Shown here: in pieces, positions 3,996-50,178 of the stretch | Position numbering within the stretch: the first letter of the stretch is position 1 | How the letters are laid out: the number at the start of each line of letters is the position of its first letter | Assembly (NCBI GenBank): GCA_020053275.1 | Contig: JAGVNL010000026.1 | Span: 6,416-70,415 of the forward strand | Reading direction: 5' to 3' | Source: a bacterium | GTDB lineage: Bacteria > Patescibacteriota > Patescibacteriia > UBA9934 | DNA: 64,000 bases | Notes under the pieces: model-generated | Database searches by the model: none | Told to the model about the DNA's origin: nothing | What the model saw: the letters and a program-made list of their open reading frames with translations, nothing else | Position numbers and translations under genes: made by a program

Positions 3996-6647
3996 ATGAT
4001 GCCAAATAATTTTACCAGCAAGAGCAACCAAGCCATGCAGGCTGCTCAAATGATCGCTGCCGATAACGGCCAGCACGGTATTGAGCCAATTCATTTGCTC
4101 GCTTCTCTCCTCGCCCAAGATGATGGCATGGTCATGACTTTACTACAAAAACTCGGATCACCCATTCAAGCTATCCAAAACGATATTGTTCGCATGCTGG
4201 AAACAATCCCCCGTCATGCCAGCGTGGAGCAGCCAATCCCAGGTCAAATCTTTTTGACGCCGCCTCTCGCTCATGTTTTAGAAAATGCCATTGCTCTAGC
4301 CAAACAATTTGGTGATGAATATATTTCGACTGAACATCTTCTCCTTGCTCTACTCACAGAAAAGATGACCGGCCAACTCCTAGTCAATCACGGCCTAACC
4401 GCGGAAGATATAGTTAAAACTCTAAAAGAACTTCGCGGCGATAATAAAATTACCAGCCAAGATCCAGAAAAGAAGACACAGGCCATAGAACGCTTCAGCA
4501 TCAACCTAACAGAACTCGCCCGTCGTGGTAAACTCGATCCAGTGATTGGACGAGACGAAGAAATTCGCCGCGTCATGCAAGTGCTTTCTCGCCGTACAAA
4601 AAATAATCCAGTATTAATCGGCGAAGCTGGTGTTGGTAAAACCGCCATCATTGAAGGGCTAGCACAACGCATTATTGCGGGTGATGTACCAGAGTCGCTT
4701 AAAGAAAAAGAAATCGTTTCGCTTGACTTAGGCGCCATGGTAGCCGGTACTAAGTTTAGAGGTGAGTTTGAGGAACGACTCAAAGCTGTTGTTAATGAAA
4801 TCAACGCCAGCACTGGTAAAATAATTCTCTTCATCGACGAGCTGCATATGTTGGTTGGTGCTGGTCATGGTGAAGATGCGCCAATGGACGCCAGCAATCT
4901 ACTCAAACCAGCGCTTGCCCGCGGAGAAATTCGCGTAGTCGGTGCAACCACCACCAAAGAATATCAAAAACATATCGAAAAGGATCAAGCGCTAGAACGA
5001 CGCTTTCAGCCTATCATGGTGAACGAACCAAGTATTGACGACACCATCGCTATCCTGCGCGGCATCAAAGAGCGCTACGAAATTCATCACGGCGTGCGTA
5101 TTTCCGACAACGCTATTATTGCTGCTGCCGAGCTCTCTACCCGCTACATTACGGATCGCCAGCTACCAGACAAAGCAGTAGATTTGATTGACGAAGCTGC
5201 CTCCGCCCTCCGTTTGCAAATCGACTCCATGCCAGAAGAACTAGACAGACTAAAACGCGACGAAATGCGTTTACAAATAGAACGCCAAGCATTATTAAAA
5301 GAAGAAGATAAAGAATCAAAAAAGCGTCTCAAAGAAATTGAAAGGCAAATTGCCGATCTCAAAGAGCAATCAGGTGCGCTAGAAATTGCTTGGAACTCCG
5401 AGAAACAACTCATCGAGGCAATTCGCGCTGCCAAAAATGAAATGGATCAGTTAATTAACGAAGCTGAGTTTGAGGAACGCCGCGGAAATCTACAACGCGT
5501 AGCAGAAATCCGTTATGGTCAAATCCCCACCAAACGAGAAACACTCAAACAAACAGAAACAAATCTAAAAATCCTCCAGCAACAACGCGGACTATTAAAA
5601 GAAGTCGTCGGTGAAGAAGACATTGCTGCAGTTGTTGGCCGTTGGACGCATATCCCAGTCTCAAAAATGTTGGAAGGTGAACTCACAAAACTTGCCCGCA
5701 TGGAAGAAGCCTTGAGCAAACGAGTAATCGGCCAAGCAGAAGCAATTCACGCCGTCAGCAACGCCCTCCGCCGCTCTCGTGCTGGCATAAGTGAAGAGAA
5801 TCGCCCAATCGGTAGTTTTATCTTCATGGGGCCAACCGGCGTCGGCAAAACCGAGCTAGCCAAAGCATTGGCGGAGTTCATGTTTAACGACGAAAAGGCC
5901 CTCGTTCGCTTAGATATGAGCGAGTACATGGAGCGCCACTCTATGAGTAAAATGGTGGGCTCGCCACCAGGCTATGTTGGCTACGACGAAGCTGGCCAAC
6001 TAACAGAAAAAATTCGTAAGCACCCCTACTCCGTCGTCCTCTTTGACGAAATTGAAAAAGCTCATCCAGATGTCTTCAACTTACTCCTGCAAATTTTAGA
6101 CGACGGTAACATCACCGACGCCAAAGGCCGTAAAGTAAACTTCAAAAACACGGTTATCATCATGACGAGCAACATTGGTTCAGACGCAATCCTAACCAAC
6201 CAGCAGCAATCAAGCCTCGGTTTTCATGACGGTACAGTCACCGCCGACGATGCCACAAAAAATAAAGTTATCGAGTTACTAAAAGAACACTTCCGCCCAG
6301 AGTTCCTAAACCGTATAGACGAAACTATCGTCTTCCATGCTCTCAGCAAAGAACAAATCGCTGAGGTTGTCGAGCTCCAACTGGCACTCGTCAGTCAACG
6401 CCTAATTACCGAACGCGGAATTGGCCTCAAAGTCACCGAGAAGGCAAAAAAGTTGCTCGCTCTTCGTGGCTACGATCCACAGTACGGTGCTCGCCCCCTC
6501 AAACGCGTCATCCAATCCATGATTCTTGACCCACTCGCCATGAAAATAATCACGGGCGATATAAGTGACAGCTCATCCCTCACCATCGACGCCAACAAAC
6601 AGGAAGAAATAGAGATTCGTAATAAACAACGGGTTGGTAGTTTGTAG
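3996..6647 (+). CDS. clpB: ATP-dependent chaperone ClpB (AAA+ disaggregase)
   Basis: 883 aa. Clp N-domain, two AAA+ modules (Walker A '[10 protein letters not shown]' and '[12 protein letters not shown]') and a long coiled-coil M-domain between them. Confidence 0.93.
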
Positions 6648-9476: not shown

Positions 9477-11312
9477 GTGTACCTCCGAGTTTTTCCTATC
9501 CTTCGACTGCCCAGGAGGTTCGGCGTCTTTGACTACGAAATACCAGACGGACTAAATGTCTCAGCTGGAGACTTAGTGCATGTCCCTTTTCATAATCGAA
9601 TAATCCTAGCGGTTGCCGTTGCCACAACAGAACAAACCGAAGTCAGAAGTAAACTCGCTCAAGTTATAGATGTCGCTTACCATGCCGCCCTCACAGAATC
9701 AGACATCAGTCGCCTAGTGAGTCTGGCCGAATCAATTGCGCAGTCGCCCCCCACTATTTTTTTATCAACCTTCGGCAAACTCACCAACGAACAATCCGCC
9801 CCTCATCTAGTGTCGTCAAATAACTCCTCACTCTCTCTATCAAAAGACCAAGTTGAACAACTGCAGCACATTTTAAAATTAATTCGGCAGGACCCGACGA
9901 AAACTCTTACGCCCCAAAACCTCAGCGTTCAACATATCTGTTGCCAACTTGGCACCGAAGCTTCTTTTACTCTCGCCAAACTCCTCCGCCAAAAAACTAA
10001 AGAACAGATGCTCATCGTTATGCCGCGCGAACGCGATGTGGATCTTCTCGCAAAACTCATCAACCTCGGCCCGAGCACTGCCGTACTCCACGGCCACACA
10101 AAACCATACGAACGCGAAAAAATTATCCGCGCTTGGCGTTCAGGCCGCTTGTCAACATTAATCGGTACACTGCAAGCCACCCTTATCCCAGCCCAAAAAA
10201 TTGATACCGTTCTCCTCATGAACTCTGGCACAGACGATCACTTTTCTAACCGCCGCAATCCTCGCCTCGACAATCGCCTCACGGCCGCTGCACAAGCCTT
10301 ACAACATAATGCGCTCTTCATCACCACAGACTTTTTACCGCGCCCCGAAGAACTCGCTAACTCCTCATCTACTATCTACTCTCTACCTTCTACCAATCAA
10401 ATAATCATTGATCTTAAAAAACCAGACGAACAAACAGACACGCAATTACTGTCAGAAACACTCATTTCTGAGATAAATAAGGCTTTACAAAGCCGAAAAA
10501 AGGTGCTACTTTTCTACAACCGTAAGGGAGTAGCCAAACGCGTTGTCTGCTCAAGTTGCTGCGCCATGGTCATTTGCGGAGCCTGTGGCAATGTCCCGTC
10601 AATCAAGCCACCGAATGCGCATTGTCTGCGTTGCGGCAGCATCTGGCCAATCCCAGATAAATGCGGCGCCTGCACAACTGGTCGACTCAATCTCAAAGGA
10701 ATCGGTAATGCTCACCTCGAAAAAGCGTTAACAGCACTCTTCCCCGCTTTTACCGTCGGTCGCGTCGAGAAAAATCATACCGCAGGAACAGGCGCCCAAA
10801 TCCAACTTGTTACTGAGTATTTCTTTTCGAGCATCGTCAAACCATTCTCCAAAAAAGAGTATGGGTTAGTAGCGGACCTAGCAGCCGACCTGTCTCTCAA
10901 CCCAGAAAACTTTAGAGCAGAAGAAGAAACCGCCAGAAAGCTTCATCGAATATCAAACTTCGGTAAACAACAAAATGCGACTGTACTAATCCAAACATGG
11001 TTGCCGAATCTAATCGACGAAATGCGCAACGCCGAAGCATGGCTTAATAACGAAACTGCCACCCGGCAAAACTACAAACTACCACCCTTCGCCGCCCAGG
11101 TTACAGTTCGCCACGCCGACGCCGCTGCCCTCACTGCCATCACCAACCAAACATTCACCAACATTCCAGAAAAGCTTGAAGCAACCGGCCGGATTCCTTA
11201 CCATAAACTAAACGAGGTTATCACTGCAATTGCCTCACTACCTGACACCGCAGTTGTCTCTATTGATCAAACCTATGCCAGCTCTCACAGTACTCACGAA
11301 TCCAAATCCTGA
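9477..11312 (+). CDS. priA: PriA-like primosomal protein N' homolog with degenerate helicase ATPase motifs (zinc-binding module intact)
   Basis: GTG start with a GGAG Shine-Dalgarno 7 nt upstream. The N-terminal 3'-DNA-binding region aligns with PriA ('LPRRFGVFDYEIPDGLNVSAGDLVHVPFHNR'). The C4-C4 zinc module 'CSSCC...CGAC...CLRCG...CGAC' is present. Walker A reads 'GTEASFTL' instead of GSGKTEVY, Walker B DEEHD is replaced by 'NSGTDDH', and the motif VI arginine finger is absent. Confidence 0.7.
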   Translation: MYLRVFPILRLPRRFGVFDYEIPDGLNVSAGDLVHVPFHNRIILAVAVATTEQTEVRSKLAQVIDVAYHAALTESDISRLVSLAESIAQSPPTIFLSTFGKLTNEQSAPHLVSSNNSSLSLSKDQVEQLQHILKLIRQDPTKTLTPQNLSVQHICCQLGTEASFTLAKLLRQKTKEQMLIVMPRERDVDLLAKLINLGPSTAVLHGHTKPYEREKIIRAWRSGRLSTLIGTLQATLIPAQKIDTVLLMNSGTDDHFSNRRNPRLDNRLTAAAQALQHNALFITTDFLPRPEELANSSSTIYSLPSTNQIIIDLKKPDEQTDTQLLSETLISEINKALQSRKKVLLFYNRKGVAKRVVCSSCCAMVICGACGNVPSIKPPNAHCLRCGSIWPIPDKCGACTTGRLNLKGIGNAHLEKALTALFPAFTVGRVEKNHTAGTGAQIQLVTEYFFSSIVKPFSKKEYGLVADLAADLSLNPENFRAEEETARKLHRISNFGKQQNATVLIQTWLPNLIDEMRNAEAWLNNETATRQNYKLPPFAAQVTVRHADAAALTAITNQTFTNIPEKLEATGRIPYHKLNEVITAIASLPDTAVVSIDQTYASSHSTHESKS

Positions 11313-11811: not shown

Positions 11812-12723
11812 ATGAAAATAATATTTTTCGGCACCCCACAATTTTCCGCTAACTTCCTTCAAGGACTCTTAAACGAGCCTTCTTTCGATGTCACTGGCGT
11901 CGTCTGCCAACCAGACGAACCAATCGGTCGTAAGAAGATTTTGACGGCGCCGCCTACCAAACAATTAGCCGAGTCTCACAGCATCCCAGTCTTTCAGCCA
12001 ACTAAACTCAAGGACGAAACATTCATCGAATCTCTCCGCCAGCTAAACGCCGACGCCTTCGTGGTCGTCGCTTATGGTCGCATCATCCCACAAATTATTT
12101 TAGATATTCCAAAACTCGGCGTAATCAATCTGCACCCGTCATTACTTCCAAAGTACCGTGGCCCGTCCCCCATGCAGTCCGCCATCGCAGCTGGGGAAAC
12201 GAAAACCGGCATATCCATCATGCTGCTCGACGCCCTCATGGATCACGGCCCAATCCTCGCCCAAACAAAACTCGCCATCACCCCAACTACCACCAGCAAA
12301 TCGCTTATGACCGAAGTTGTTGCTACTGGCGTGCCATTACTAATCGAAACTTTGCAGAAGCTTGAGCATAGCGAAATCACACCAACCGAACAAGACCACT
12401 CTGTAGCCACTACCTGTTCAATGTTGTCACGAGCTGATGGCATAATAAATTGGAACCAACCAGCAGCCCTCATCGACGCCAAAATCCGCGGCCTCAACCT
12501 CTGGCCAGGCACCAGCACCACCAACCTCAAAATATTCTCAGCTATCAACACCGACCGGTCCCTGCCACCAGGCCAAGTCCTCATCGCCGCTGACCACTTG
12601 TTCATCGGCACCGGCACCACCGCTCTAGAAATTACCGAACTCCAACCAACCGCTGGCAAACGCATGCCCGCCAAAGCCTTCATTGCCGGCCATCACGAAC
12701 TTAACGGTACGAGTCTCCTGTAA
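11812..12723 (+). CDS. fmt: methionyl-tRNA formyltransferase
   Basis: N-terminal 'KIIFFGTP' and 'HPSLLPKYRG' formyltransferase motifs. Canonical def-fmt arrangement. Confidence 0.92.
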   Translation: MKIIFFGTPQFSANFLQGLLNEPSFDVTGVVCQPDEPIGRKKILTAPPTKQLAESHSIPVFQPTKLKDETFIESLRQLNADAFVVVAYGRIIPQIILDIPKLGVINLHPSLLPKYRGPSPMQSAIAAGETKTGISIMLLDALMDHGPILAQTKLAITPTTTSKSLMTEVVATGVPLLIETLQKLEHSEITPTEQDHSVATTCSMLSRADGIINWNQPAALIDAKIRGLNLWPGTSTTNLKIFSAINTDRSLPPGQVLIAADHLFIGTGTTALEITELQPTAGKRMPAKAFIAGHHELNGTSLL

Positions 12724-12758
12724 ATTGTTTATTGAGCCTGAGCCTTATAAGAGCGAGT

Positions 12759-12918
12759 GACTGCACTAATCCTCACGACAACGCCAAGACCGCCTCGTGT
12801 GAATCTCTCTCGAGTTCGACGAGAGCCTTAGGAGATTCGCCGGTCGCCATTCCAAAATATAGTCAGCTATAAAATGTGGCGGGCGTGTCTGCAGCTAGAA
12901 GTAAGGATTAGTGCAGTC
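12759..12918. repeat. 15-bp perfect inverted repeats (gactgcactaatcct / aggattagtgcagtc) flanking a ~130-bp structured spacer; MITE-like element or structured RNA
   Basis: The inverted repeats are at 12759-12773 and 12904-12918. Internal stems include gaatctc/gagattc (7 bp), tctcg/cgaga and cacga/tcgtg. The element sits in the 222-bp gap between fmt and the truncated UvrA-like gene. Confidence 0.45.
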
Positions 12919-12945
12919 GCGAGCGACCTCAAGTTTTGGTTATTG

Positions 12946-14232
12946 TTAAAGTTCAATCACCGCATCGCAATTGTTTATAAGTTCATCACGATTGTCTGCA
13001 ATGAGAATCGTGTTATTTTTATCAATAATTTTTTGGAAAACTTTTATTATTACTGGAAGATCACTCAAGTGCAAACCACGAGAAGGTGTGTCGAGAATAT
13101 AAATACACCTATCGCCAAGCTTCTTAGACAATATCTTCGCCAACTTCACCCGCTGTGCCTCACCACCGCTCAATGTTCCAGAGCGTTGGCCGAGCGGTAA
13201 ATAACCAAGACCGACTTCCTGCAAAAAGCCCAGCTTTCGTTGCACAAGAGGAAATGCAGAAAACAGAGCAACAGCGTCATCAATAGTCAGCTTCAATAAA
13301 TCATTGATTGAAATATCCTTATACTCAATCTTCGCCACTGCTGCCGAGTCAGCCTTGCCGTCTTTAGTATTAAAACTGAAATGTGCCTTCTTTAGCTTAG
13401 CCTTTTTGCTAGCTGGCAAATTAGCATAAACTGCACGAATCACATCCCATACGCCAAGATAGGTCGCTGGCGTGCTGGTGGGCGAACCGCTTAATGGCCG
13501 CTGATCCACAAAGTATGATCGACGGACATCAGACTTGCCCTCTATCCCTTTGAAGCCAGTTTTAAGTTTCCAAGCACCATTACCCTTAAACAACGCACCA
13601 TAAACCACACTCAATAATGTCGACTTACCAGAACCGGAAGGCCCAGTAACGCACACCAAATTATTCAACGAAATCGTCACCGAATAATTTTTCAACGAAT
13701 TTTTAGTAATACCATTAATCGTCAACTCTCGTTTCCTCATGCGCAGAGCCTTCTCACTTGGCTTTCTAGCATAGTCGATAGTTTCGGCAAGACTAGAAAA
13801 AGCATAACGAGCGGTTGGCGTCTTAGCTTTCTTAAACTCGGCAATGCCACCAGCAAAAACCACCTCGCCACCTTTCGATCCAGACTCAGGGCCAAACTCA
13901 ATAACATATTCAGCGCCAGCAATAATATCTTTGTTATGCTCAACAACAATTACAGAAATATCTCGTGCTACCAATTCTCGTAGCAGCTTTAGCACCTCCT
14001 GTCGTTCCTTGTGAGCCAAACCTGCGCATGGTTCGTCAACAATCAACAAATCGTCCTTTTTCATTGTTCGTGCCGCCTCTCGTAGTAAATACCAATTAGT
14101 CTCACCCAAACTTTTACCAGGCAAAGCAACCACCTTCTGCGCCACCACATGAGTCTTCGGCAAACCGGTCACAACTGCCTCCACCTTCTTATCCGAGGTT
14201 GTTAGCCTTGGCGTTCTTAATAGAAATTTCAT
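12946..14232 (-). pseudogene. UvrA-like ABC ATPase fragment (degenerate or truncated excinuclease subunit A paralog)
   Basis: The 428-aa ORF aligns to UvrA from the end of NBD-I ('LLIVDEPCAGLAHKERQ...VIVVEHNKDII...FGPESGSKGGEVVF') through the NBD-II Walker A ('GPSGSGKST') and signature ('LSGGEAQRVKLAKIL'). The NBD-I Walker A, UvrB-binding and zinc-finger regions are missing, the third zinc finger is deleted, and the NBD-II H-loop His is replaced by Asp ('IADNRDEL'). The ORF ends about 70 aa before the usual UvrA C-terminus. Confidence 0.6.
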
Positions 14233-14267
14233 TTGCCATACAACTTAATTGTCCGTCAAATAAGCAA

Positions 14268-16025
14268 TTATGGCAAGAATCCGCCAGCCTGGATGCTCCA
14301 AAGCTTATTATAAGTCCCTTCGCGTTCAATAAGCTCTTGGTGCGTACCAGTGTCAACTACTCTGCCCTTTTCTATAACGACGATCCTATTCATCTGCATA
14401 ATTGTAGAAAGACGGTGCGCGATAACAATAACAGTTTTGCTCTTCATTAGTTCTCGTAACGCATCCTGAATAAGCGACTCACTTTCACTATCAAGGCTGC
14501 TGGTAGCCTCGTCAAGAACAAGAATTGGCGCGTTCTTAAGAATTGCTCTAGCAATAGCAACCCGTTGTCGCTCACCACCAGAAAGCTTAATGCCCCGTTC
14601 ACCAACCTTGGTATCGTAGCCATGTGGCAATTCAGAAATAAACTCATGACAATGCGCTTTCTTACTGGCTGCAATCACTTCCTTATCACTAGCATCCCGC
14701 CGGCCATAACGAATATTCTCCATCACCGTCCGGTGAAATAGCAACGAATCCTGCGGCACGAGCGAAACAAGTGTTCGCAAACTATCCTGCGTCACTTTAC
14801 TAATATCCTGCCCATCAATAGTTATCAAGCCTCTTGAAACATCAAAAAATCTCATCAGTAGCTTAATTATCGTACTCTTTCCCGCCCCACTTGGCCCAAC
14901 AAAGGCCACCTTTTCTCGTGGCTTTATCTCGAGCGTCATGTCACTCAAAATTTCTCGCCCATCGCTATAACTAAACGACACCTTATGAAAGTTTATTTCA
15001 CCTTTTTTAACCATTAGCTTCTTAGCGCCCCTCTTATCAACTAACTCATACGGCATCTCAAGAATATCTACCATCTCTCTGGCCTCTGCAAAACCGTCAT
15101 ACAAATCGCGAATAACTCGACCAAAATCGAACAACCGAATAAACAAACCAATGAGCGCCGTCTGGATAAGAGCAAAATCACCAAGCGTTATGACACCAGC
15201 AACATACATATTGATAGCTACAAACATCGACACCGCGTTCAACAGCAACATAAAACCACCTTGCACAGCGTCGTTGATCACACCAAGATTCCAAGTAAAA
15301 ACCGCCATCCTGTGCCATCGACCGTTGACTTCCGCAAATCTCGCTTCCTCAAATTTCTTACCAACAAACTGCTGAATGGTCACAGCGTTACCCACCGCAT
15401 CAGCCAAAACTCCACTTGATTCCGTATCTAGCTCAGCCCGTTTTATATCCCATTTCAACTTCCACCTAGCAACCATGATATTAATAACAACAAACAGCAC
15501 TGCCCAAATGCTAAGTATAAACGCAAACAACGGACTACGAAGATAAAAAATAACAATCGTACCAACAATCGCCACTACAATCTGTATCAACTTCCAGGTC
15601 AGCAAGTCCATCAGCCGCTCAAAAGATCTGCCAAAACGGTGCACCTTTTTAACCAGTGAACCTGCAAAATTATCAGTGAAAAACCGGTACGAATGATTCA
15701 ATAAGTGCGCAAAAGCGGTCTGCTCAAGGTCGACGATAATCCGTGGCTGCAAATAGTTATTAAGAAAATCGGCAATACGGCGCACCACCCACATACCAAC
15801 ATCAAGCCCTACCATCAAGAACAGTACACCAAACAAAGTTGCTGCCAAAGCAGTCCCCGATTGGCCTGTCGCGAATGAGTCAAAAAACTTTTTACTTAAC
15901 AGCGCAGGTACCAAATTAGCTAAATCTAGCACCAGTAAAGCAACAATAAAAATCGAAAATCTAATCGGGTAGCGCCTAACATGAGCCCAATATATTTTGA
16001 TTGTTGGCCTAACAGATAATGACAT
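14268..16025 (-). CDS. ABC transporter, fused permease/ATPase (MsbA/exporter type)
   Basis: 585 aa. Six N-terminal TM helices, Walker A 'GPSGAGKST', signature 'LSGGERQRVAIARA', Walker B 'ILVLDEATS'. Confidence 0.9.
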   Translation of the reverse strand: MSLSVRPTIKIYWAHVRRYPIRFSIFIVALLVLDLANLVPALLSKKFFDSFATGQSGTALAATLFGVLFLMVGLDVGMWVVRRIADFLNNYLQPRIIVDLEQTAFAHLLNHSYRFFTDNFAGSLVKKVHRFGRSFERLMDLLTWKLIQIVVAIVGTIVIFYLRSPLFAFILSIWAVLFVVINIMVARWKLKWDIKRAELDTESSGVLADAVGNAVTIQQFVGKKFEEARFAEVNGRWHRMAVFTWNLGVINDAVQGGFMLLLNAVSMFVAINMYVAGVITLGDFALIQTALIGLFIRLFDFGRVIRDLYDGFAEAREMVDILEMPYELVDKRGAKKLMVKKGEINFHKVSFSYSDGREILSDMTLEIKPREKVAFVGPSGAGKSTIIKLLMRFFDVSRGLITIDGQDISKVTQDSLRTLVSLVPQDSLLFHRTVMENIRYGRRDASDKEVIAASKKAHCHEFISELPHGYDTKVGERGIKLSGGERQRVAIARAILKNAPILVLDEATSSLDSESESLIQDALRELMKSKTVIVIAHRLSTIMQMNRIVVIEKGRVVDTGTHQELIEREGTYNKLWSIQAGGFLP

Positions 16026-16066: not shown

Positions 16067-17578
16067 CTACAAACTCCGCAACACCCGATAAATCTCCACC
16101 ATCGCCCAGGTGTCCAGTGCGCAATAGTCGAGCAAGTCGCGTGCAATCTTCTCTTTTTCAGTCGCCGAAGTTTTTGCCGAAATCAACTTCTCCCACCTCT
16201 CACTCGCCTGATCACCTTTACTAATATTCATCACCGAGTAATTAAGGGCTGGCACAAGCACCGGCAACACCTTTTTGATACTTGCACTCCCCTTAAAAGC
16301 CGGGTCAACATAGTGGCCATCGGAAAAAATTGTCATCAAATCAAACATCTTGTCATTAATCTCCTTCAAGAAACTCGCGTACTCCGGGTGTAATTCGGCT
16401 AGTTTATCGTTCCGCTGTTTCTCATAACTACTGTACCAACTAATCACCGTTCCCGCAGGATCAATGTCCACCTTCATTCGCTCAATAAGTGGTAAGGTCA
16501 AATCCCCAGTCGGCTCGGTGATGATGAATTCACGATGTTCAATCTCCCCACCAGCTTGCATGATATGAAGTGAATACTGAAACGGTACCTGCTCGTACGC
16601 CCCAAAACCATCGAACATTGGAATCGCACTGCCATAACCCTCATAGTCAAAAAACTGGAGCGGAAATACCAAACCATCCAGCGCTTTCCTAACTGCAGCG
16701 TAATCGATTATTGCCTTGTCCAACAGGCAAGCTGTGTACTGCAATTTCTGCGCTTTATTCAAATCTTCTGGATTATGAATCTCAGTCAACGCCAATTCCC
16801 CCCTATCCACCCAATCCTCAAGCTTCTTCTTACTCATGCCAATCCGATTGAAGTTATGAACAGAATAAGCCGGCACCTCTGGATTAGAATAAGCAAATGT
16901 TGAGCAATGGTTGCTCCTCCCCTCATACAAACACGCACAACCAGCCTGCTCTGGCTGCTCCAAGCATTCCTTCATCTGCTCCATCTCTCCCCTTACCTGT
17001 TCTTCCGCGGCCATCACCTCCGCCGTCAAATCCTCCTCCATGAATAATGCGTGATTATTCACCTCACCATTCTTTCTGTATTCGCGATTAAGGTGAATGA
17101 CGCCAGCCTTAACTATTTTCACCCCGCAAGCCTCAATCACGATCTTCTGAAAAGCTAAATCGTTGACATGGTGATGCGGCGCTCTTCGTTTCACCTCATT
17201 CGTCGCCTTCACCTCAAACAACTCCCATCCACCAAGCCCTGAAGTGACGATTCCATCGTCTACTACCGGGCCAACACACTTCAAAATATCTGCCCGCAAA
17301 TAAAACACATCATTCTGGAATGTTGCCTGAAAAACCGTCTGCCTATCCGCCATCACCTCCTTAGTATCAATTATCGCCTGCCCATGATGGCTCTCAATCA
17401 ACACTCCCTCCGGATAAAGCAACCTACACGCCGCCTCCGCCAAGTTACCGTCCTCAATAATCTTCTTCTCAAAATCACTAAACTCCATACCCTCAAACAA
17501 CTCTGGCTTATGCTTCCGCAACCACAAATTCTTTTTGCAAAATGTGTACTCTAGGTAATCAGTTTTAGTGATTAACAT
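16067..17578 (-). CDS. PD-(D/E)XK-superfamily nuclease-like protein (DUF2779-like)
   Basis: N-terminal 'ITKTDYLEYTFCKKNLWL' matches the characteristic start of DUF2779/Cas4-like proteins. A D...ExK signature lies around 'RADIL...ELFEVKATNEVK'. Confidence 0.45.
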   Translation of the reverse strand: MLITKTDYLEYTFCKKNLWLRKHKPELFEGMEFSDFEKKIIEDGNLAEAACRLLYPEGVLIESHHGQAIIDTKEVMADRQTVFQATFQNDVFYLRADILKCVGPVVDDGIVTSGLGGWELFEVKATNEVKRRAPHHHVNDLAFQKIVIEACGVKIVKAGVIHLNREYRKNGEVNNHALFMEEDLTAEVMAAEEQVRGEMEQMKECLEQPEQAGCACLYEGRSNHCSTFAYSNPEVPAYSVHNFNRIGMSKKKLEDWVDRGELALTEIHNPEDLNKAQKLQYTACLLDKAIIDYAAVRKALDGLVFPLQFFDYEGYGSAIPMFDGFGAYEQVPFQYSLHIMQAGGEIEHREFIITEPTGDLTLPLIERMKVDIDPAGTVISWYSSYEKQRNDKLAELHPEYASFLKEINDKMFDLMTIFSDGHYVDPAFKGSASIKKVLPVLVPALNYSVMNISKGDQASERWEKLISAKTSATEKEKIARDLLDYCALDTWAMVEIYRVLRSL

Positions 17579-23788: not shown

Positions 23789-24157
23789 TTAGGAAATTGA
23801 CAACCGCTTCATACGGTTCGTGCGGTGCTTGTTCTTTGGAAGCATACGGGACACTGCGGCGCGGAGAACGGAAGCTGGATCCTTTTCCCACATAACTCGC
23901 ATAGTAGTCTCGTGAATACCGCCTGGGTGACCGCTATGGTGGAAATACTTTTTGTCTTCGTACTTCTTACCAGTCACTTTAATACCGGAGCAGTTGGTAA
24001 CGACCACGATGTTGCCAGCGTCTACATTCGGCTGGTAAACAGCACTGGTCTTGCCCATCAGGTTCATGGCAATTTGTGTTGCCAAGCGACCAAGGATCTT
24101 ACCAGCGGCGTCAAAGGCCACCGTCTTACGGACTGGATTGATTATAGTATTTGCCAT
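23789..24157 (-). CDS. rplM: 50S ribosomal protein L13 (short form)
   Basis: 'AAGKILGRLATQIAMNLMGK' L13 signature. 122 aa; located immediately upstream of rpsI as usual. Confidence 0.85.
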   Translation of the reverse strand: MANTIINPVRKTVAFDAAGKILGRLATQIAMNLMGKTSAVYQPNVDAGNIVVVTNCSGIKVTGKKYEDKKYFHHSGHPGGIHETTMRVMWEKDPASVLRAAVSRMLPKNKHRTNRMKRLSIS

Positions 24158-24159
24158 AT

Positions 24160-24510
24160 TTAGACGAATTCGATGAGTGCCAAGTCGGCCGCATCACCCT
24201 GACGAGCACCGAGTTTGGTAATCCGAGTATAACCACCAGTACGGGTCATGAAACGAGGTCCCAAGACTTCGAGCAGCTTTTTGACTGGCTGTTCAGTAGT
24301 GAAGTAGCCAAGCAAGGCGCGGCGAGTGGCCAGGTCATTCTTGCGAGCCAAGGTAACCAACTTCTCTACCGCTGGCCTGGCATACTTAGCCCGAGCAATG
24401 GTTGTCTCTACCTTCTCGTAGGTAATGAGACTGGTAACCAAGTCGCGTAGTAATGCTTTGCGGCCAGAGGTATGGCGACTAAAGGTTTTCTTATTTTTAC
24501 GATGTCGCAT
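24160..24510 (-). CDS. rplQ: 50S ribosomal protein L17
   Basis: 'MRHRKNKKTFSRHTSGRKALLRDLVTSLITYEKVETT' L17 signature. Follows rpoA. Confidence 0.92.
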   Translation of the reverse strand: MRHRKNKKTFSRHTSGRKALLRDLVTSLITYEKVETTIARAKYARPAVEKLVTLARKNDLATRRALLGYFTTEQPVKKLLEVLGPRFMTRTGGYTRITKLGARQGDAADLALIEFV

Positions 24511-24515
24511 AACTG

Positions 24516-25259
24516 TTAGCCTTCGGCCGAAGCATCAGATGCTTTCGCAATCTGTTCGGTGAGTGAGGCGTGACTCAACTGGCTTTGAATCCAGGTGAAG
24601 TGATTGAGAATAATTTTGGTGGCGTGTTCGACTGCTTCCTGCGGCGTCACCGTGCCGTCTGTGATGATGTTCATGATGACCTTGTCGTAGTTGGTAATTT
24701 CACCAACGCGCGTGTTCTCAATGCGGATACCACACTGGCGCACCGGGCTGAACAAAGCGTCCACACCGATCATACCAATCTCTGTGTTTGGTACTTCGCG
24801 CTCCTCGGTTGGCATGTAACCACGGCCACGAGATACCACGATGTCCATTTCGAAGTTGATGCTGTCGGTCAGCGTGCAAAGTACTAAGTCTGGGTTCATG
24901 ATTTCCACATCAGCGTTGGCAGAAATGTCTGCAGCGGTGACGATACCTGGCTTGTTAGCTGTTACGCGTAAAATTACAGGCTCTTCTGAGTGTACCTTCA
25001 TGCGCAACTGCTTCAGGTTCAACATGACCTCCAAACCATCTTCTTTGACACCGGTGATGGCAGCAAACTCATGCTGCACACCCTTGATCTTCATGGCTGT
25101 AACTGCCGCACCAGGCAAAGACGAAAGCAATACTCGGCGCAGTGAGTTGCCAACTGTAGTGCCATATCCATGATGGAGAGGCTCGATGGTAAGAATGGCC
25201 TCGTGCTCTTGTTCACCGGTCGTGAAGTACATCTTTGACGGAAGAAGAATGTTCTCCAT
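24516..25259 (-). CDS. rpoA: DNA-directed RNA polymerase alpha subunit, N-terminal domain only (no alpha-CTD encoded)
   Basis: 247 aa. Alpha-NTD motifs 'LTIEPLHHGYGTTVGNSLRRVLLSSLPGAAVTA'. The ORF stops about 10 aa after the NTD and is followed directly by rplQ. No linker or CTD ('…NCLK…' HhH) region is present. Confidence 0.85.
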   Translation of the reverse strand: MENILLPSKMYFTTGEQEHEAILTIEPLHHGYGTTVGNSLRRVLLSSLPGAAVTAMKIKGVQHEFAAITGVKEDGLEVMLNLKQLRMKVHSEEPVILRVTANKPGIVTAADISANADVEIMNPDLVLCTLTDSINFEMDIVVSRGRGYMPTEEREVPNTEIGMIGVDALFSPVRQCGIRIENTRVGEITNYDKVIMNIITDGTVTPQEAVEHATKIILNHFTWIQSQLSHASLTEQIAKASDASAEG

Positions 25260-25271
25260 AGGATGATGGGA

Positions 25272-25895
25272 TTAGCGCATCGAGTAAAACTCGACGATAA
25301 GTTTAGGATCAAACACTTCCTTAAGGTCCTCGCCTGCCGGAATGCTGACCACTTTGCCCACATTATTCTCCATATTGAGCCAACCAGGAACGGTTGTGGT
25401 CTTCAAACGATCACTGAGGTCGCTGAATACTTTCTTTTCCTTCTTGTTCTCACGAAGCCCTACCACATCGCCGACACGGACCTGATATGAAGGAATGTTT
25501 ACCTTGATACCATTCACCGTGAACATACCGTGGCTAACCATTTGACGAGCCTGTGGCCTAGTCTTGGCAAAACCGAGACGGAAGGCTGCATTGTCCAAGC
25601 GAAGCTCGAGCAAGCGGCACAACTGTTCGCCAGTGTTACCTTCCGCTTTCTCTGCCTTGGCAAAGTAGTTGCGGAACTGTCGCTCCATGATGCCGTACAA
25701 TCGTTTAGCTTTTTGCTTCTCTCGTAGCTGCTGGCCATAGACCGAGAGGCGTGATGGGCGACCCATGTTCTTTTTACCGTGCACACCCGGTGGGTATGGA
25801 CGCTTTTGCATGAGCTTGAGGATGCTGGAACTCGTGGAAAGTGGGACGCCTTCACGACGACTCATCTTGCCGAGTTTATTTAATGTTTTTCCCAT
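25272..25895 (-). CDS. rpsD: 30S ribosomal protein S4
   Basis: 'LGKMSRREGV' N-terminus and S4 domain. Sits in the rpsM-rpsK-rpsD-rpoA order. Confidence 0.9.
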   Translation of the reverse strand: MGKTLNKLGKMSRREGVPLSTSSSILKLMQKRPYPPGVHGKKNMGRPSRLSVYGQQLREKQKAKRLYGIMERQFRNYFAKAEKAEGNTGEQLCRLLELRLDNAAFRLGFAKTRPQARQMVSHGMFTVNGIKVNIPSYQVRVGDVVGLRENKKEKKVFSDLSDRLKTTTVPGWLNMENNVGKVVSIPAGEDLKEVFDPKLIVEFYSMR

Positions 25896-25898
25896 AGA

Positions 25899-26366
25899 TT
25901 ACATGCGTCGTGCTCGACGAGGACGGCAGCCGTTGTGGGCTACTGGTGTCAAGTCGTTGATCGAGAGAACATTGAAACCGTTACCGTTCAAAGCGCGCAG
26001 GGCTCCGTCGCGGCCATTGCCGATACCACTAACGAAAACATGCAAATCTTTGAGTCCGTACACTGCACTAGCCTCCGCAATCTTTTTGACGATGACGCTA
26101 GCAGCGTATGGAGTAGCCTTCTTAGGACCTTTGAAGCCACAGTTACCGGCGCTAGACCAAGTAACAGTGTTGCCGTTTGGATCCGTCAGAGTAACGATGG
26201 TGTTGTTGAAACTGGCTTGGATGTAAGCACGACCCTGTGGAATAGTCCGCATCACGCGCTTCTTACCTTTGGCTGTGCGGAGTGTCTTGTCGGCCTTACC
26301 TTTACCAACTGGAGCTTTCGCCTCAGTTGGCTCGGCAGCCTTATCTTGGATTATTTCATCAGTCAT
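25899..26366 (-). CDS. rpsK: 30S ribosomal protein S11
   Basis: 'GRAYIQASFNNTIVTLTDPNGN' S11 signature, with an N-terminal Lys/Ala-rich extension. Confidence 0.9.
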   Translation of the reverse strand: MTDEIIQDKAAEPTEAKAPVGKGKADKTLRTAKGKKRVMRTIPQGRAYIQASFNNTIVTLTDPNGNTVTWSSAGNCGFKGPKKATPYAASVIVKKIAEASAVYGLKDLHVFVSGIGNGRDGALRALNGNGFNVLSINDLTPVAHNGCRPRRARRM

Positions 26367-47628: not shown

Positions 47629-50178
47629 CTACAGGCCAACCGGAGGCAGGGGGACAACTGGTTGCACTTGTTTAGGCACACCGACGCCAGAACGCAGAGC
47701 AATCTCGCGCTCCACAATCTTCTTGTCGCGACCATAAAGCAAACGAGAAATTTCTTTGAGAGCCTGGCCAACTTTTGGACTGCCTTCTTGTTTATTGTCG
47801 ACGCGAAGTGTAAACGGCTTACCCTGAGCGTTGTCGATGATAATCTTACAATTCCATGTTAACGCCTCATTATTCATCAGGTCGTAAGCAGAAAATGTAG
47901 GCTCAAACACTTTCTCCAGTACCTCGGTATCATCAGGGCCGACACGCGACACAAACATGCTGCCCACATTGCCGAGCACAGCATCACGAATCTCACTCTT
48001 GCCGTCCTTCACCAACTGGCCCATATACTGGTGCGCCATGATCAAGTTAAGACGATACTTACGAGCCTCGGACAAAATAGTAGCAATACTTGGCGTCACG
48101 AAGTTTTGGAATTCGTCGACATAAAGATAAAAATCTTTGCGTTTACTCTCCTCCATATCAGCACGAGCAAAAGCCGCCATCTGCAACTTGGCCACAATAA
48201 TCAAACCAAGCAGCGACGCATTAACTTCGCCAGTTTTACCTTTAGACAAATTGACCAAAAGAATCTTACCCTCGTCCATTATTTCACGGAAGTTGAAGGC
48301 GGATTTACTTTGACCGATAATGTTACGCATCATCTCGTTCTCCACAAACCTACCAACCTTACTCACTAGATATCCCATGGTTTCACTCTTGTGGTAGTCA
48401 CTAGTCTTGGCCTGCTCATCCTCCCAGAAACTACGCACAACAGGGTCCTTAACACGAGCAATCCACTCCTTCTGGAAAGCGTCGTCCGCAATCATGCGTG
48501 GGATTTCTGCAATCGTACCAGGGTAAGTCGGGTCCGCCATCAAGGTAAGCATGAAGTTACGCATGGAGTGCTCAAACATCGGGCCGATCATTTCCGGTGG
48601 GAACAACATATAGAAGATGCTGATCATCTCCTGCACCGCAAAGTCGCGCATGTCCTCACTTGGTGCCTCCAGCATGTTTAAGCCCATTGGTCGTTCGGTA
48701 TCGCTTGGGTTGAAGTAAACAACATCATCGTATCGTTCTTTTGGAATAAGCTCCATTATGCCGTCTGCCAAGTCTCCGTGCGGATCAATAACACCAACAC
48801 CTTTACCAGCAATAATATCTTGAATAACCAAGTTCTTAATAAACTCAGACTTACCAGAACCAGTCTTACCAATAATGTACATGTGGCGACGGCGGTCACC
48901 GTCTTTGATAAATACTGGTTTTGTAGCGCCGCGATAGGTGTTGGTACCCAAACGCAAACCTTCAGTTGGCGTGTTAGTTGGGGCCGGGGCGACACGCGCC
49001 ATCATCCACAAAATATTCGGCGTATCAGTACTTGGCAACGGCAAATGCCACATAGACGCCATTTCTTCGGTATTCAAAATAATTTTCTGATACCTGGCAA
49101 AAGTACGATAAATGAAGTGCTCGATTAAACGGCGCTTGCGGAGCGGCAACACCTTCTGCAAGGAGTTACCATACTCATAAATGTTATATTGACCGAACGC
49201 TTGCAATGCATTGTTTAGGTTCGCCAACGCCATTTGAGCGGATTTCGCCGAAGAAACGATGCGAATATTTACTTCCATTCCGGCCTTAGAAATTTTATTT
49301 CCAACTCCCTCCAACATCTTAGATTCCGTTTGTGACAACTGTTTTTGATCTCTTCGTTCAGACTTTTGTTTCTCAATATCTTCTTTACTCGCAAACCAGC
49401 TACCAACAGTTTTACCCTTTTTCGCTTCTTCAAGCGACATGCCATTCTGCATGTTCCTTATAATCTTAGTACCCAGTTCACGCCAATTATGGTGAGTTGG
49501 GCGAATAATATATTGTACTACCAAACCATCGCCTTCTTCTACCTTAGACAAAGCATTGGTTAATGAATTCAACGGGTCTGAATCATTTTCTTTATAAGTC
49601 TTGAGAGGGAAAATAGACTCTCGTTTCAACTCTAAATAGCCGCCGAGAACAATGCCAGTAGTTGAAAAAATATTATAATCCTCAACCTCCTTCAAGCTGG
49701 CGTCACTATACTGAGCGTGCAACTGCTGCTGCACAAAATCATACATGTTGCGCGGTACATTAATGTAAAAAGAAACGAGCTTGTTATGAGCTACAATTTC
49801 TAATGCAATGGAATCTGTTCTCCCAGCAAACCAAGCATGAATACCAAAACCATGATGTGGTTTTACGCCACCAATAGCCGCAAAAAAAGTTTCCGCAATA
49901 GCAATCGACTCCTTAATAACTTGTGCTGTTTCATTACCCTTAGCTTCTTCTTGGTTGCGGTACCGAGGAATGGTTACTAGTAATGTAATGTTGGTATGCT
50001 TGCCTCCCTGCTGTCTAAACCTGCGATGCATCTTGTAACGCAACAGAAATATACCGCCAATTATTGCCCCAACAATCAGCAAAGCAATTATTAAACGCAA
50101 CCAAATGGACGAGCCACCGGTTGCAACATACTGTGTAGTTGCTACTTCGCCTGCAATGAGAAATAAGCCTGGAAGCAC
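47629..50178 (-). CDS. type IV secretion-type ATPase (VirD4/TraG/TraD coupling-protein-like or VirB4-like) with two N-terminal TM helices
   Basis: 849 aa. Two N-terminal TM helices, Walker A 'IIGKTGSGKSEF' at roughly residue 430, Walker B 'LYVDEFQNF' (a T4CP-like DEFxN). Confidence 0.5.
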   Translation of the reverse strand: MLPGLFLIAGEVATTQYVATGGSSIWLRLIIALLIVGAIIGGIFLLRYKMHRRFRQQGGKHTNITLLVTIPRYRNQEEAKGNETAQVIKESIAIAETFFAAIGGVKPHHGFGIHAWFAGRTDSIALEIVAHNKLVSFYINVPRNMYDFVQQQLHAQYSDASLKEVEDYNIFSTTGIVLGGYLELKRESIFPLKTYKENDSDPLNSLTNALSKVEEGDGLVVQYIIRPTHHNWRELGTKIIRNMQNGMSLEEAKKGKTVGSWFASKEDIEKQKSERRDQKQLSQTESKMLEGVGNKISKAGMEVNIRIVSSAKSAQMALANLNNALQAFGQYNIYEYGNSLQKVLPLRKRRLIEHFIYRTFARYQKIILNTEEMASMWHLPLPSTDTPNILWMMARVAPAPTNTPTEGLRLGTNTYRGATKPVFIKDGDRRRHMYIIGKTGSGKSEFIKNLVIQDIIAGKGVGVIDPHGDLADGIMELIPKERYDDVVYFNPSDTERPMGLNMLEAPSEDMRDFAVQEMISIFYMLFPPEMIGPMFEHSMRNFMLTLMADPTYPGTIAEIPRMIADDAFQKEWIARVKDPVVRSFWEDEQAKTSDYHKSETMGYLVSKVGRFVENEMMRNIIGQSKSAFNFREIMDEGKILLVNLSKGKTGEVNASLLGLIIVAKLQMAAFARADMEESKRKDFYLYVDEFQNFVTPSIATILSEARKYRLNLIMAHQYMGQLVKDGKSEIRDAVLGNVGSMFVSRVGPDDTEVLEKVFEPTFSAYDLMNNEALTWNCKIIIDNAQGKPFTLRVDNKQEGSPKVGQALKEISRLLYGRDKKIVEREIALRSGVGVPKQVQPVVPLPPVGL

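Follow-up and report, generated by a model that had tools for sequence, protein, structure and literature searches.

Does the truncated UvrA-like gene considered here mark the loss of nucleotide excision repair from its host, or does it belong to a distinct kind of protein? It lies in a stretch of 64,000 nucleotides (the window) of contig JAGVNL010000026.1, assembly GCA_020053275.1, from a bacterium of the Patescibacteriota. An initial annotation had described an intact open reading frame (ORF) of 428 codons at 12946-14232, which is indeed present on the minus strand, and had proposed that it is either a decaying uvrA pseudogene or a minimal UvrA-like ATPase. Our analyses point to a different answer: the locus is probably a damaged copy of a conserved Patescibacteria family, here called mini-UvrA, whose members are UvrA cores with a single catalytic site.

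The motifs run, at the places previously assigned to them, from the signature and Walker B of the first nucleotide-binding domain (NBD-I) to the Walker A and signature of the second (NBD-II). In canonical UvrA the proximal ATP site is formed by the NBD-I P-loop and signature II, and the distal site by the NBD-II P-loop and signature I (PMC12796330); the equivalent sites are called site 1 and site 2 below. The features of the ORF are as follows.

12946..14232, minus strand: called ORF, 428 codons, ATG start, no internal stops
14101..14112, minus strand: degenerate signature I, SLGE rather than LSGGE (aa 41-44), belonging to the non-catalytic site 2
14029..14049, minus strand: NBD-I Walker B, LLIVDEP (aa 62-68), Asp-Glu intact
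13933..13947, minus strand: NBD-I H-loop, VVEHN (aa 96-100), His present
13618..13644, minus strand: NBD-II Walker A, GPSGSGKST (aa 197-205), Lys present
13318..13380, minus strand: segment of signature domain II at the place of the canonical Zn3 finger and beta-hairpin, here a short Cys-free linker, FSFNTKDGKADSAAVAKIEYK (alignment to 3pih and 6n9l)
13150..13173, minus strand: signature II, LSGGEAQR (aa 354-361), consensus, completing the catalytic site 1
13099-13140: family motif AKxLSKKLxDRxxY, between signature II and Walker B II, exact match to its DNA pattern
13084..13104, minus strand: NBD-II Walker B, IYILDTP (aa 377-383), Thr for the catalytic Glu
12988..13005, minus strand: NBD-II H-loop position, LIADNR, Asp413 in place of His

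Domain and motif searches of the ORF found no NBD-I Walker A, no UvrA_inter (PF17760) and no CxxC motif, in agreement with the description of a protein without the NBD-I Walker A, the UvrB-binding domain or zinc fingers. Nor did a profile search recover a full UvrA architecture: the match to the UvrA models (924-943 positions) is confined to positions ~510-860, and the scores of 301.6 and 304.4 bits on NCBIfam TIGR00630 and NF001503 do not reach the cut-offs of 729.8 and 1147. When aligned on Thermotoga maritima UvrA (3pih), the ORF covers residues ~436-863, with a short linker as the counterpart of the Zn3 segment at 718-743. It ends ~50-70 residues short of the canonical C-terminus, beside an inverted repeat that is described below.

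Relatives were gathered from a collection of 5.8 billion proteins, and the 120 best matches were examined. These are 357-495 aa long, mostly 460-480 aa, and 49-77% identical to the window ORF, and their named sources are metagenome-assembled genomes of Patescibacteria (Parcubacteria, Pacebacteria and Shapirobacteria). In the alignment all family members terminate at ..VIxL, directly after the NBD-II H-loop region, as does the window ORF, whose C-terminus AVIEL lines up with all family C-termini. Since all members end there, the stop that had been taken as some 70 residues early is the native C-terminus of the family. On the family hidden Markov model (HMM), ORF residues 14-428 correspond to profile positions 50-465 (682.7 bits), and residues 1-13 are an out-of-frame reading of the true N-terminus of the gene. 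Intact members carry ~50 extra N-terminal residues, including a perfect Walker A, VVGKSGSGKSSLVYDVLY, which the window ORF does not have.

The intact order in the first half of the protein is NBD-I P-loop, Q-loop, ~10 residues, SLGE, Walker B, H-loop and linker; the second half consists of the NBD-II P-loop, a zinc-finger-free signature domain II, LSGGEAQR, Walker B, the H-loop position and the end. NBD-I is cut down to its ATP-binding domain (P-loop, Q-loop, the relic SLGE, Walker B and H-loop), and at ~465 aa mini-UvrA is hardly more than the tandem-NBD core of UvrA. For P0004, the nearest full-length member, an AlphaFold model (pLDDT 91.5, pTM 0.89) has its closest Protein Data Bank (PDB) matches in the UvrA core constructs 3ux8 and 6n9l (TMq 0.87-0.88), and Foldseek places it in the UvrA-type tandem-NBD fold with signature domain II (E = 1.5e-40). 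The DNA pattern for AKxLSKKLxDRxxY was found in 9/9 family genes and 0/76 other loci (85 loci in all). At least four mini-type 50% representatives (P0048, P0174, P0210 and P0266) were among the matches listed in a search of a representative library, the top matches of which were mostly duplicated UvrA proteins of 1,300-2,300 aa. Among the literature matches for UvrA with Patescibacteria, candidate phyla radiation (CPR) or Parcubacteria, no title or abstract dealt with such a family, and mini-UvrA is apparently undescribed.

Shorter variants also occur within the family. Nine loci (L095, L103, L114, L115, L123, L127, L136, L148 and L151) form a reduced subgroup of ~392-406 aa that keeps the KKLGDR motif and the one-active-site design, with FDNP in Walker B II and Glu in H-loop II; it has dispensed with the SLGE relic and with part of the linker, and its signature domain II is cut back further. 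A second subgroup, of ~429-432 aa (P0050, P0052, P0055, P0057, P0058, P0060 and P0062), has an intact N-terminus and is missing profile positions ~304-342, the stretch of signature domain II that holds the canonical Zn3; its likeness in length to the window ORF is coincidental. P0065 and P0090 bear the NCBI label 'Nanoarchaeota archaeon' and are either mis-binned CPR contigs or a case of transfer into DPANN archaea. A contig scan with the family alignment was dominated by the generic P-loop pattern, and its colinear matches in L009 and L024 were set aside as canonical UvrA of 954-989 aa, not mini-UvrA.

Motif statistics over 136 unique full-length members revealed a sharp difference between the two ATP sites. 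At site 1 the NBD-I P-loop SGSGK, the Walker-B Asp-Glu and the H-loop His are each 100% conserved, and in the NBD-II signature GGEAQR the G, G, E, Q and R are invariant and the A is present in 95%. Site 2 keeps the NBD-II P-loop Lys in 100% of members and has lost its catalytic residues: the Walker-B catalytic position is T, I, V or N (63, 18, 13 and 3%) and Glu in none, the H-loop position is E, D or S (47, 45 and 5%) and His in none, and the NBD-I signature is SLGE across the family. The window ORF has the family-type site 2 (DTP, Asp413, SLGE and GPSGSGKST), and the replacement of the NBD-II H-loop His by Asp, correctly noticed at the outset, is native to the whole family. As judged from these motifs, mini-UvrA is an asymmetric ATP-binding cassette (ABC) ATPase with one consensus site and one degenerate site. 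With its one active site, the family would lend itself to telling apart what the proximal and the distal ATP site each contribute.

A dN/dS ratio across orthologs, which had been suggested as a check, was not computable because synonymous sites are saturated, and comparison of pN with pS and relative-rate tests were used in its place. The values (pS 0.73-0.89 versus pN 0.17-0.35) indicate that the family is under purifying selection. It is in effect UvrA pared down by nature to a minimal core, and reveals what UvrA can dispense with while selection persists. Mini-UvrA is also strongly basic, with a median isoelectric point (pI) of 9.74 and a net charge of +31; a co-resident canonical UvrA has a pI of 8.2 and a charge of +4. 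A CxxC of any kind is present in 5/136 members and is absent from P0004, and the canonical UvrA of contig L085 has five.

The 5' end of the window copy was then compared with the family N-termini by three-frame translation and with its two closest relatives by DNA alignment. Two features were located there.

14189..14239, minus strand: relic of the native 5' end, with the family ATG at 14239, then MANEISIKNAKANNLG and TAA; a 16-codon stub in another frame
14198..14199, minus strand: approximate deletion junction, 107 nt (3x35+2), exact placement uncertain within a few nt

The called ATG at 14232 is preceded, 7 nt upstream, by the native one. The first 15 native codons are still readable in a frame different from that of the ORF, and homology picks up again in the ORF's frame at KKVEAVVTGLPKT. 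A gap of 107 columns (alignment columns 104-210) is present in the window copy only, and as 107 is not a multiple of three the frame is shifted. The ~36 deleted codons, ..KNxSxKIPLxxLVxVVGKSGSGKSSLVYDVLYxxS.., would on the P0004 model make up three beta-strands, the NBD-I P-loop and helix 1. The missing P-loop segment is encoded nowhere else in the 64-kb window, and a profile match that starts at position 50 is found in the window copy alone among 53 complete-context lineages. The invariant N-terminal P-loop of the family, GxSGSGK[ST][ST], having been lost to the deletion, the window copy is a disrupted and not an intact member. The idea of a minimal UvrA-like ATPase holds for the conserved ~465-aa family, and probably not for this copy; the suspicion of damage was right, and the cause is a 107-nt frameshifting 5' deletion, not decay of a uvrA.

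The remainder of the gene is well preserved. In the other 119 sequences, 97 columns reach >=95% conservation; the window ORF retains 90 of them, 89 unchanged and one with a Leu-to-Ile substitution, which equals the median of intact members. Relative-rate tests against the two closest relatives gave no significant difference with three of the outgroups used and a marginal one with another (chi-square ~4). By these measures the rest of the ORF is not detectably decaying, and the deletion would then be recent, tolerated or an artefact. The window copy would be unable to bind or hydrolyze ATP at site 1, and the core of its NBD-I sheet would be lost. With both gone, it is probably a recently inactivated mini-UvrA, unless the deletion is an assembly error.

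Damaged copies occur elsewhere in the family: that of L139 carries four in-frame stops and that of L149 is split. Such sporadic loss, in the window and in these two lineages, fits an accessory gene. In L139 (~4970-6263) the stops stand in place of Gln, Gln, Glu and Glu, and residues have often changed to Phe, Leu or Ile (DEPCAG has become DEFCAG, for example); the copy is either a true pseudogene or a sequence that has undergone heavy deamination. Two further explanations for a short product were considered and rejected. A recurrent short isoform did not hold up, as the 357-aa P0061 reflects an N-run in its scaffold (L154, ~2870-2970, where ABC exporters lie on both sides of the gene) and P0041 and P0088 have an internal Met codon as their start. 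A split gene with its N-terminal half elsewhere was discarded because intact members have the P-loop in-chain and no such segment is present in the window.

The alternative that survives best is that the gap of 107 nt arose in assembly or sequencing, or stems from a minority strain, and that the real genome has an intact ~465-codon mini-uvrA. The otherwise pristine condition of the gene, free of internal stops and on a lineage not clearly accelerated, is what this alternative predicts; the sequence is known from one contig only, and the truncation of P0061 did prove to be a scaffold gap. However, the sequence is continuous across the junction, with no N run and no assembly scar, assemblers seldom collapse ~100 nt of coding DNA that is not repetitive, and the disruptions in L139 and L149 appear genuine. 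We consider an artefact improbable.

Less likely again is that the 428-aa product from the ATG at 14232 is functional as it stands, for example as a nucleic-acid binder that binds ATP without hydrolyzing it and uses only NBD-II. The open frame is intact, all the remaining family-conserved residues are kept, including the NBD-II P-loop and signature II, and the ATG is close enough to the native start that it could share upstream translation signals. In an AlphaFold model of the truncated product the first 18 residues are disordered and residues 19-428 fold confidently (mean pLDDT 88.2), a confidence that is alignment-driven and says little on stability. Against this, no other complete-context member among the 53 lineages has such a form, three core beta-strands, the P-loop and helix 1 of NBD-I are deleted, and the P-loop that was lost is the only one of the catalytic site and is invariant in 136 members. 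Translation would moreover begin at the native ATG, which ribosomes encounter before the other, and end 16 codons later. A recently inactivated mini-UvrA thus accounts best for the window copy.

The relation of the family to excision repair could be assessed on contigs that hold both kinds of gene. A 523-kb contig (L085) with the mini-UvrA P0035 encodes uvrB (672 aa), uvrA (843 aa) and uvrC (392 aa) ~10 kb away, and its canonical UvrA has UvrA_inter (E = 2.2e-23), CxxC motifs, consensus motifs in both NBDs and a normal C-terminal tail. On TIGR00630 and NF001503 this protein scores 1235.4 and 1310.5 bits, and P0004 scores 364.6 and 369.8; UvrA_inter has no match in the window ORF, P0004 or P0035, and mini-UvrA is 35% identical to the L085 canonical UvrA over the shared core. 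In L126 a canonical 950-aa UvrA lies 283 nt from the mini-UvrA. Since canonical uvrABC or UvrA is found on the same contigs, mini-UvrA is a paralog, and its presence or damage is consequently uninformative on the loss of nucleotide excision repair. The L085 canonical UvrA (12225-14756) is itself short, with UvrA_inter found and no Pfam match to the insertion or DNA-binding domain, which suggests that canonical UvrA of the CPR may likewise be trimmed.

That the ORF is a canonical uvrA remnant decaying in situ, with loss of excision repair from the organism, is highly improbable: its best database models are UvrA equivalogs and the window holds no uvrB, uvrC or second uvrA-like gene, but 64 kb is too small a sample to inform on uvrABC in the whole genome, every 'missing' feature except the NBD-I P-loop is common to >130 intact relatives under purifying selection, identity is 50-77% to mini-UvrA members versus 35% to canonical Patescibacteria UvrA, and relatives have both genes. 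The distinction matters for genome interpretation. Both the window ORF and its relatives carry the label 'excinuclease ABC subunit A' or the generic 'ATP-binding cassette domain-containing protein', and counting mini-UvrA as UvrA, or as a uvrA pseudogene, would lead to wrong inferences on excision repair in bacteria with reduced genomes.

What, then, might mini-UvrA do? The gene upstream of the window copy provided one indication, as did the phosphotransferase genes found at two other loci.

14268..16025, minus strand: ABC half-transporter (ABC_membrane and ABC_tran, 585 aa, six predicted transmembrane segments), upstream of the ORF, co-oriented and 35 nt from it
L002, 1703-2482, and L094, ORF L094_2: homologous APH-type kinases of 259 and 260 aa, with the motif HGDLHxNNVMF

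The family DNA pattern located 68 metagenome loci, and gene context was compared over 53 dereplicated lineages, 52 of them with any neighbor. Clustering of the flanking ORFs gave exporter-type ABC half-transporters of 585-609 aa as the sole strongly recurrent class of neighbor. An exporter (>=480 aa, >=3 predicted transmembrane segments) was present within three genes in 13/53 lineages by ORF clustering, on the same strand in 10 of these 13 and usually downstream, and in 16/53 by an HMM of the transmembrane domain only. Exporter-type genes made up 16/197 of the genes within +/-3 positions versus 0/216 distal genes (Fisher p = 5e-6). The association with an adjacent ABC exporter, co-oriented in the window as had been pointed out, is statistically significant across lineages. 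In two independent lineages, an APH/fructosamine-kinase-type phosphotransferase, listed above, lies between mini-UvrA and the exporter. The link to exporters and APH-type kinases, loose as it is, suggests an accessory function in Patescibacteria related to toxins or antibiotics. PADLOC gave no specific sign of an anti-phage defense ATPase: its best matches, mad3 and mad8, were equally good for the NBD of the neighboring exporter and reflect generic ABC similarity; no defense partners were found in the mini-UvrA neighborhoods.

Work on canonical UvrA provides a framework for a possible mechanism. The distal site has a high affinity for ATP and must be occupied before nucleotide is bound at the proximal site, and the most extensive DNA contacts are made through signature domain II (PMC12796330). 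We infer that mini-UvrA could act as a UvrB-independent ABC switch that binds nucleic acid, is gated by ATP and turns over at a single site. ATP at the degenerate, distal-type site 2 would keep both NBDs engaged, and hydrolysis at the one proximal-type site 1 would reset the protein. Such a switch would gate the binding of a polyanion, most likely DNA, via the retained signature-II surface, and might do so in concert with neighboring ABC exporters, analogous to DrrC or Ecm16, which are Streptomyces resistance proteins against DNA-binding drugs (PMC9328131, PMC10192343). By this analogy an exporter-linked role is possible, if weakly supported. We would only tentatively go further, and think it rather doubtful that mini-UvrA is a functional, undescribed UvrB-independent one-site class which in many Patescibacteria forms a resistance module with an ABC exporter, and sometimes an APH-type kinase, dislodging or sensing toxins bound to DNA for subsequent removal by the exporter, in the manner of a pared-down DrrC/DrrAB or Ecm16.

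Several points weigh against this picture of the family and of the window copy. The near set itself served to train the exporter HMM, the neighboring exporters are only 31-36% identical to one another, the exporter of the window is upstream whereas a downstream position is usual elsewhere, and gene context apart from exporters is unconserved. The binding of DNA, as opposed to RNA or another partner, follows only from the homology of signature domain II and from charge. Ecm16 without its insertion domain no longer binds DNA (PMC10192343), and mini-UvrA has no insertion domain. The dimer interface and DNA 'wedge' of UvrA lie in ATP-binding domain I, residues ~54-85 (PMC12796330); in mini-UvrA the spacing from the P-loop Lys to the Q-loop Gln is 18 residues shorter (32 versus 50), and with this segment shortened a UvrA-like dimer is doubtful. 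As for the window copy, its deletion is known from a single assembly only, and the absence of decay in the remaining 415 codons is also compatible with an artefact or a tolerated truncation. We nevertheless regard a damaged mini-UvrA as the probable identity of the locus.

The surroundings of the gene hold a second element of interest, next to its 3' end.

12759..12918: strongly folding inverted repeat, with 18-nt arms at 12759-12776 and 12901-12918 (94% complementary), 27 nt past the ORF stop

The repeat lies in the 222 nt that separate fmt from the convergent mini-uvrA and is adjacent to, and outside, the latter. The segment 12745-12930 is predicted to adopt a long multi-branched fold closed by an 18-bp stem, with z-scores of -6.7 on the plus and -4.9 on the minus strand. 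It has no Rfam match at gathering thresholds or at E <= 10 and contains no tRNA or tmRNA, and no second full copy of the element was found within the window. A structured RNA that has escaped annotation is one possibility, a palindromic element another. A scan for promoters and terminators gave no signal stronger than that of shuffled sequences.

Other genes of the window were recorded in passing. Directly upstream of the exporter, on the same strand, 16067-17578 (minus) encodes a DUF2779 protein of 503 aa (E = 3.9e-37), the N-terminus of which weakly matches Cas4-like sequences. An 849-aa protein at 47629-50178 (minus) matches VirD4/TrwB-type coupling proteins and HerA-like ATPases (T4SS-DNA_transf, TrwB_AAD_bind and DUF87), and a relative of this gene is also near the mini-UvrA of L008. 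A PriA-like protein of 611 aa at 9477-11312 (plus) matches the PriA 3' DNA-binding domain and Helicase_C only weakly, and might represent a primosomal helicase that has diverged or been reduced. All 2-kb bins of the window have a negative GC skew (~-0.03 to -0.31) except 24001-26000 (+0.008), and the long ORFs are mostly on the minus strand; both are consistent with a window that lies within one replichore.

Comparison with known systems helps to place the family. With canonical UvrA, mini-UvrA shares the tandem-NBD ABC fold (TMq 0.83-0.88 to UvrA structures) and the order P-loop I, Walker B I, linker, P-loop II, signature domain II, LSGGEAQR and Walker B II. It differs in the absence of signature domain I, the UvrB-binding domain, the insertion domain, the three zinc modules and the C-terminal 50-70 residues, in having one degenerate ATP site, in being much more basic, and in scores that reach no more than half of the curated cut-offs. 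Asymmetric ABC ATPases, which pair a consensus site with a degenerate one, are known among heterodimeric exporters such as TM287/288, and in CFTR. Their co-varying pattern matches that of mini-UvrA: the Walker-B Glu and H-loop His are lost, the partner signature is degenerate and the P-loop Lys is kept. Those proteins are membrane transporters, however, whereas mini-UvrA is soluble, carries its NBDs in tandem and is of UvrA ancestry. ABC-F proteins (EttA) and ABCE1 are, like mini-UvrA, soluble and basic with two NBDs per chain, and give weak, distant matches in fold and sequence. These fall far below those of UvrA (TMq 0.32-0.57), NCBIfam ABC-F scores are far under the cut-off, and mini-UvrA has neither the ABC-F linker (PtIM) nor an Fe-S domain.

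Engineered UvrA cores (3ux8, and T. maritima UvrA delta117-399, 6n9l) come closer, with roughly the same loss of the UvrB-binding and insertion domains, but they retain signature domain I, Zn3, the C-terminal tail and both consensus sites. Class IIa UvrA proteins (Deinococcus radiodurans UvrA2, DrrC and Ecm16; PDB 2vf7 and 7sh1) are ~750-850 aa long, keep signature domain I, the insertion domain and zinc modules 2 and 3 (PMC10192343), and hydrolyze ATP (PMC9328131). Mini-UvrA has none of these modules and a single consensus site; between its NBD-I Q-loop and the signature relic there are just ~10 residues, with no Cys motifs, which sets it apart from class IIa. A class IIb subdivision, with which the ORF had been likened, is mentioned in PMC9328131 by way of a citation of Marszalkowska et al. 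2013, and the label is not confirmed for mini-UvrA. Like the class IIa proteins, mini-UvrA would be expected to act without UvrB, and where DrrC and Ecm16 confer drug resistance, mini-UvrA is, by comparison, enriched beside ABC exporters.

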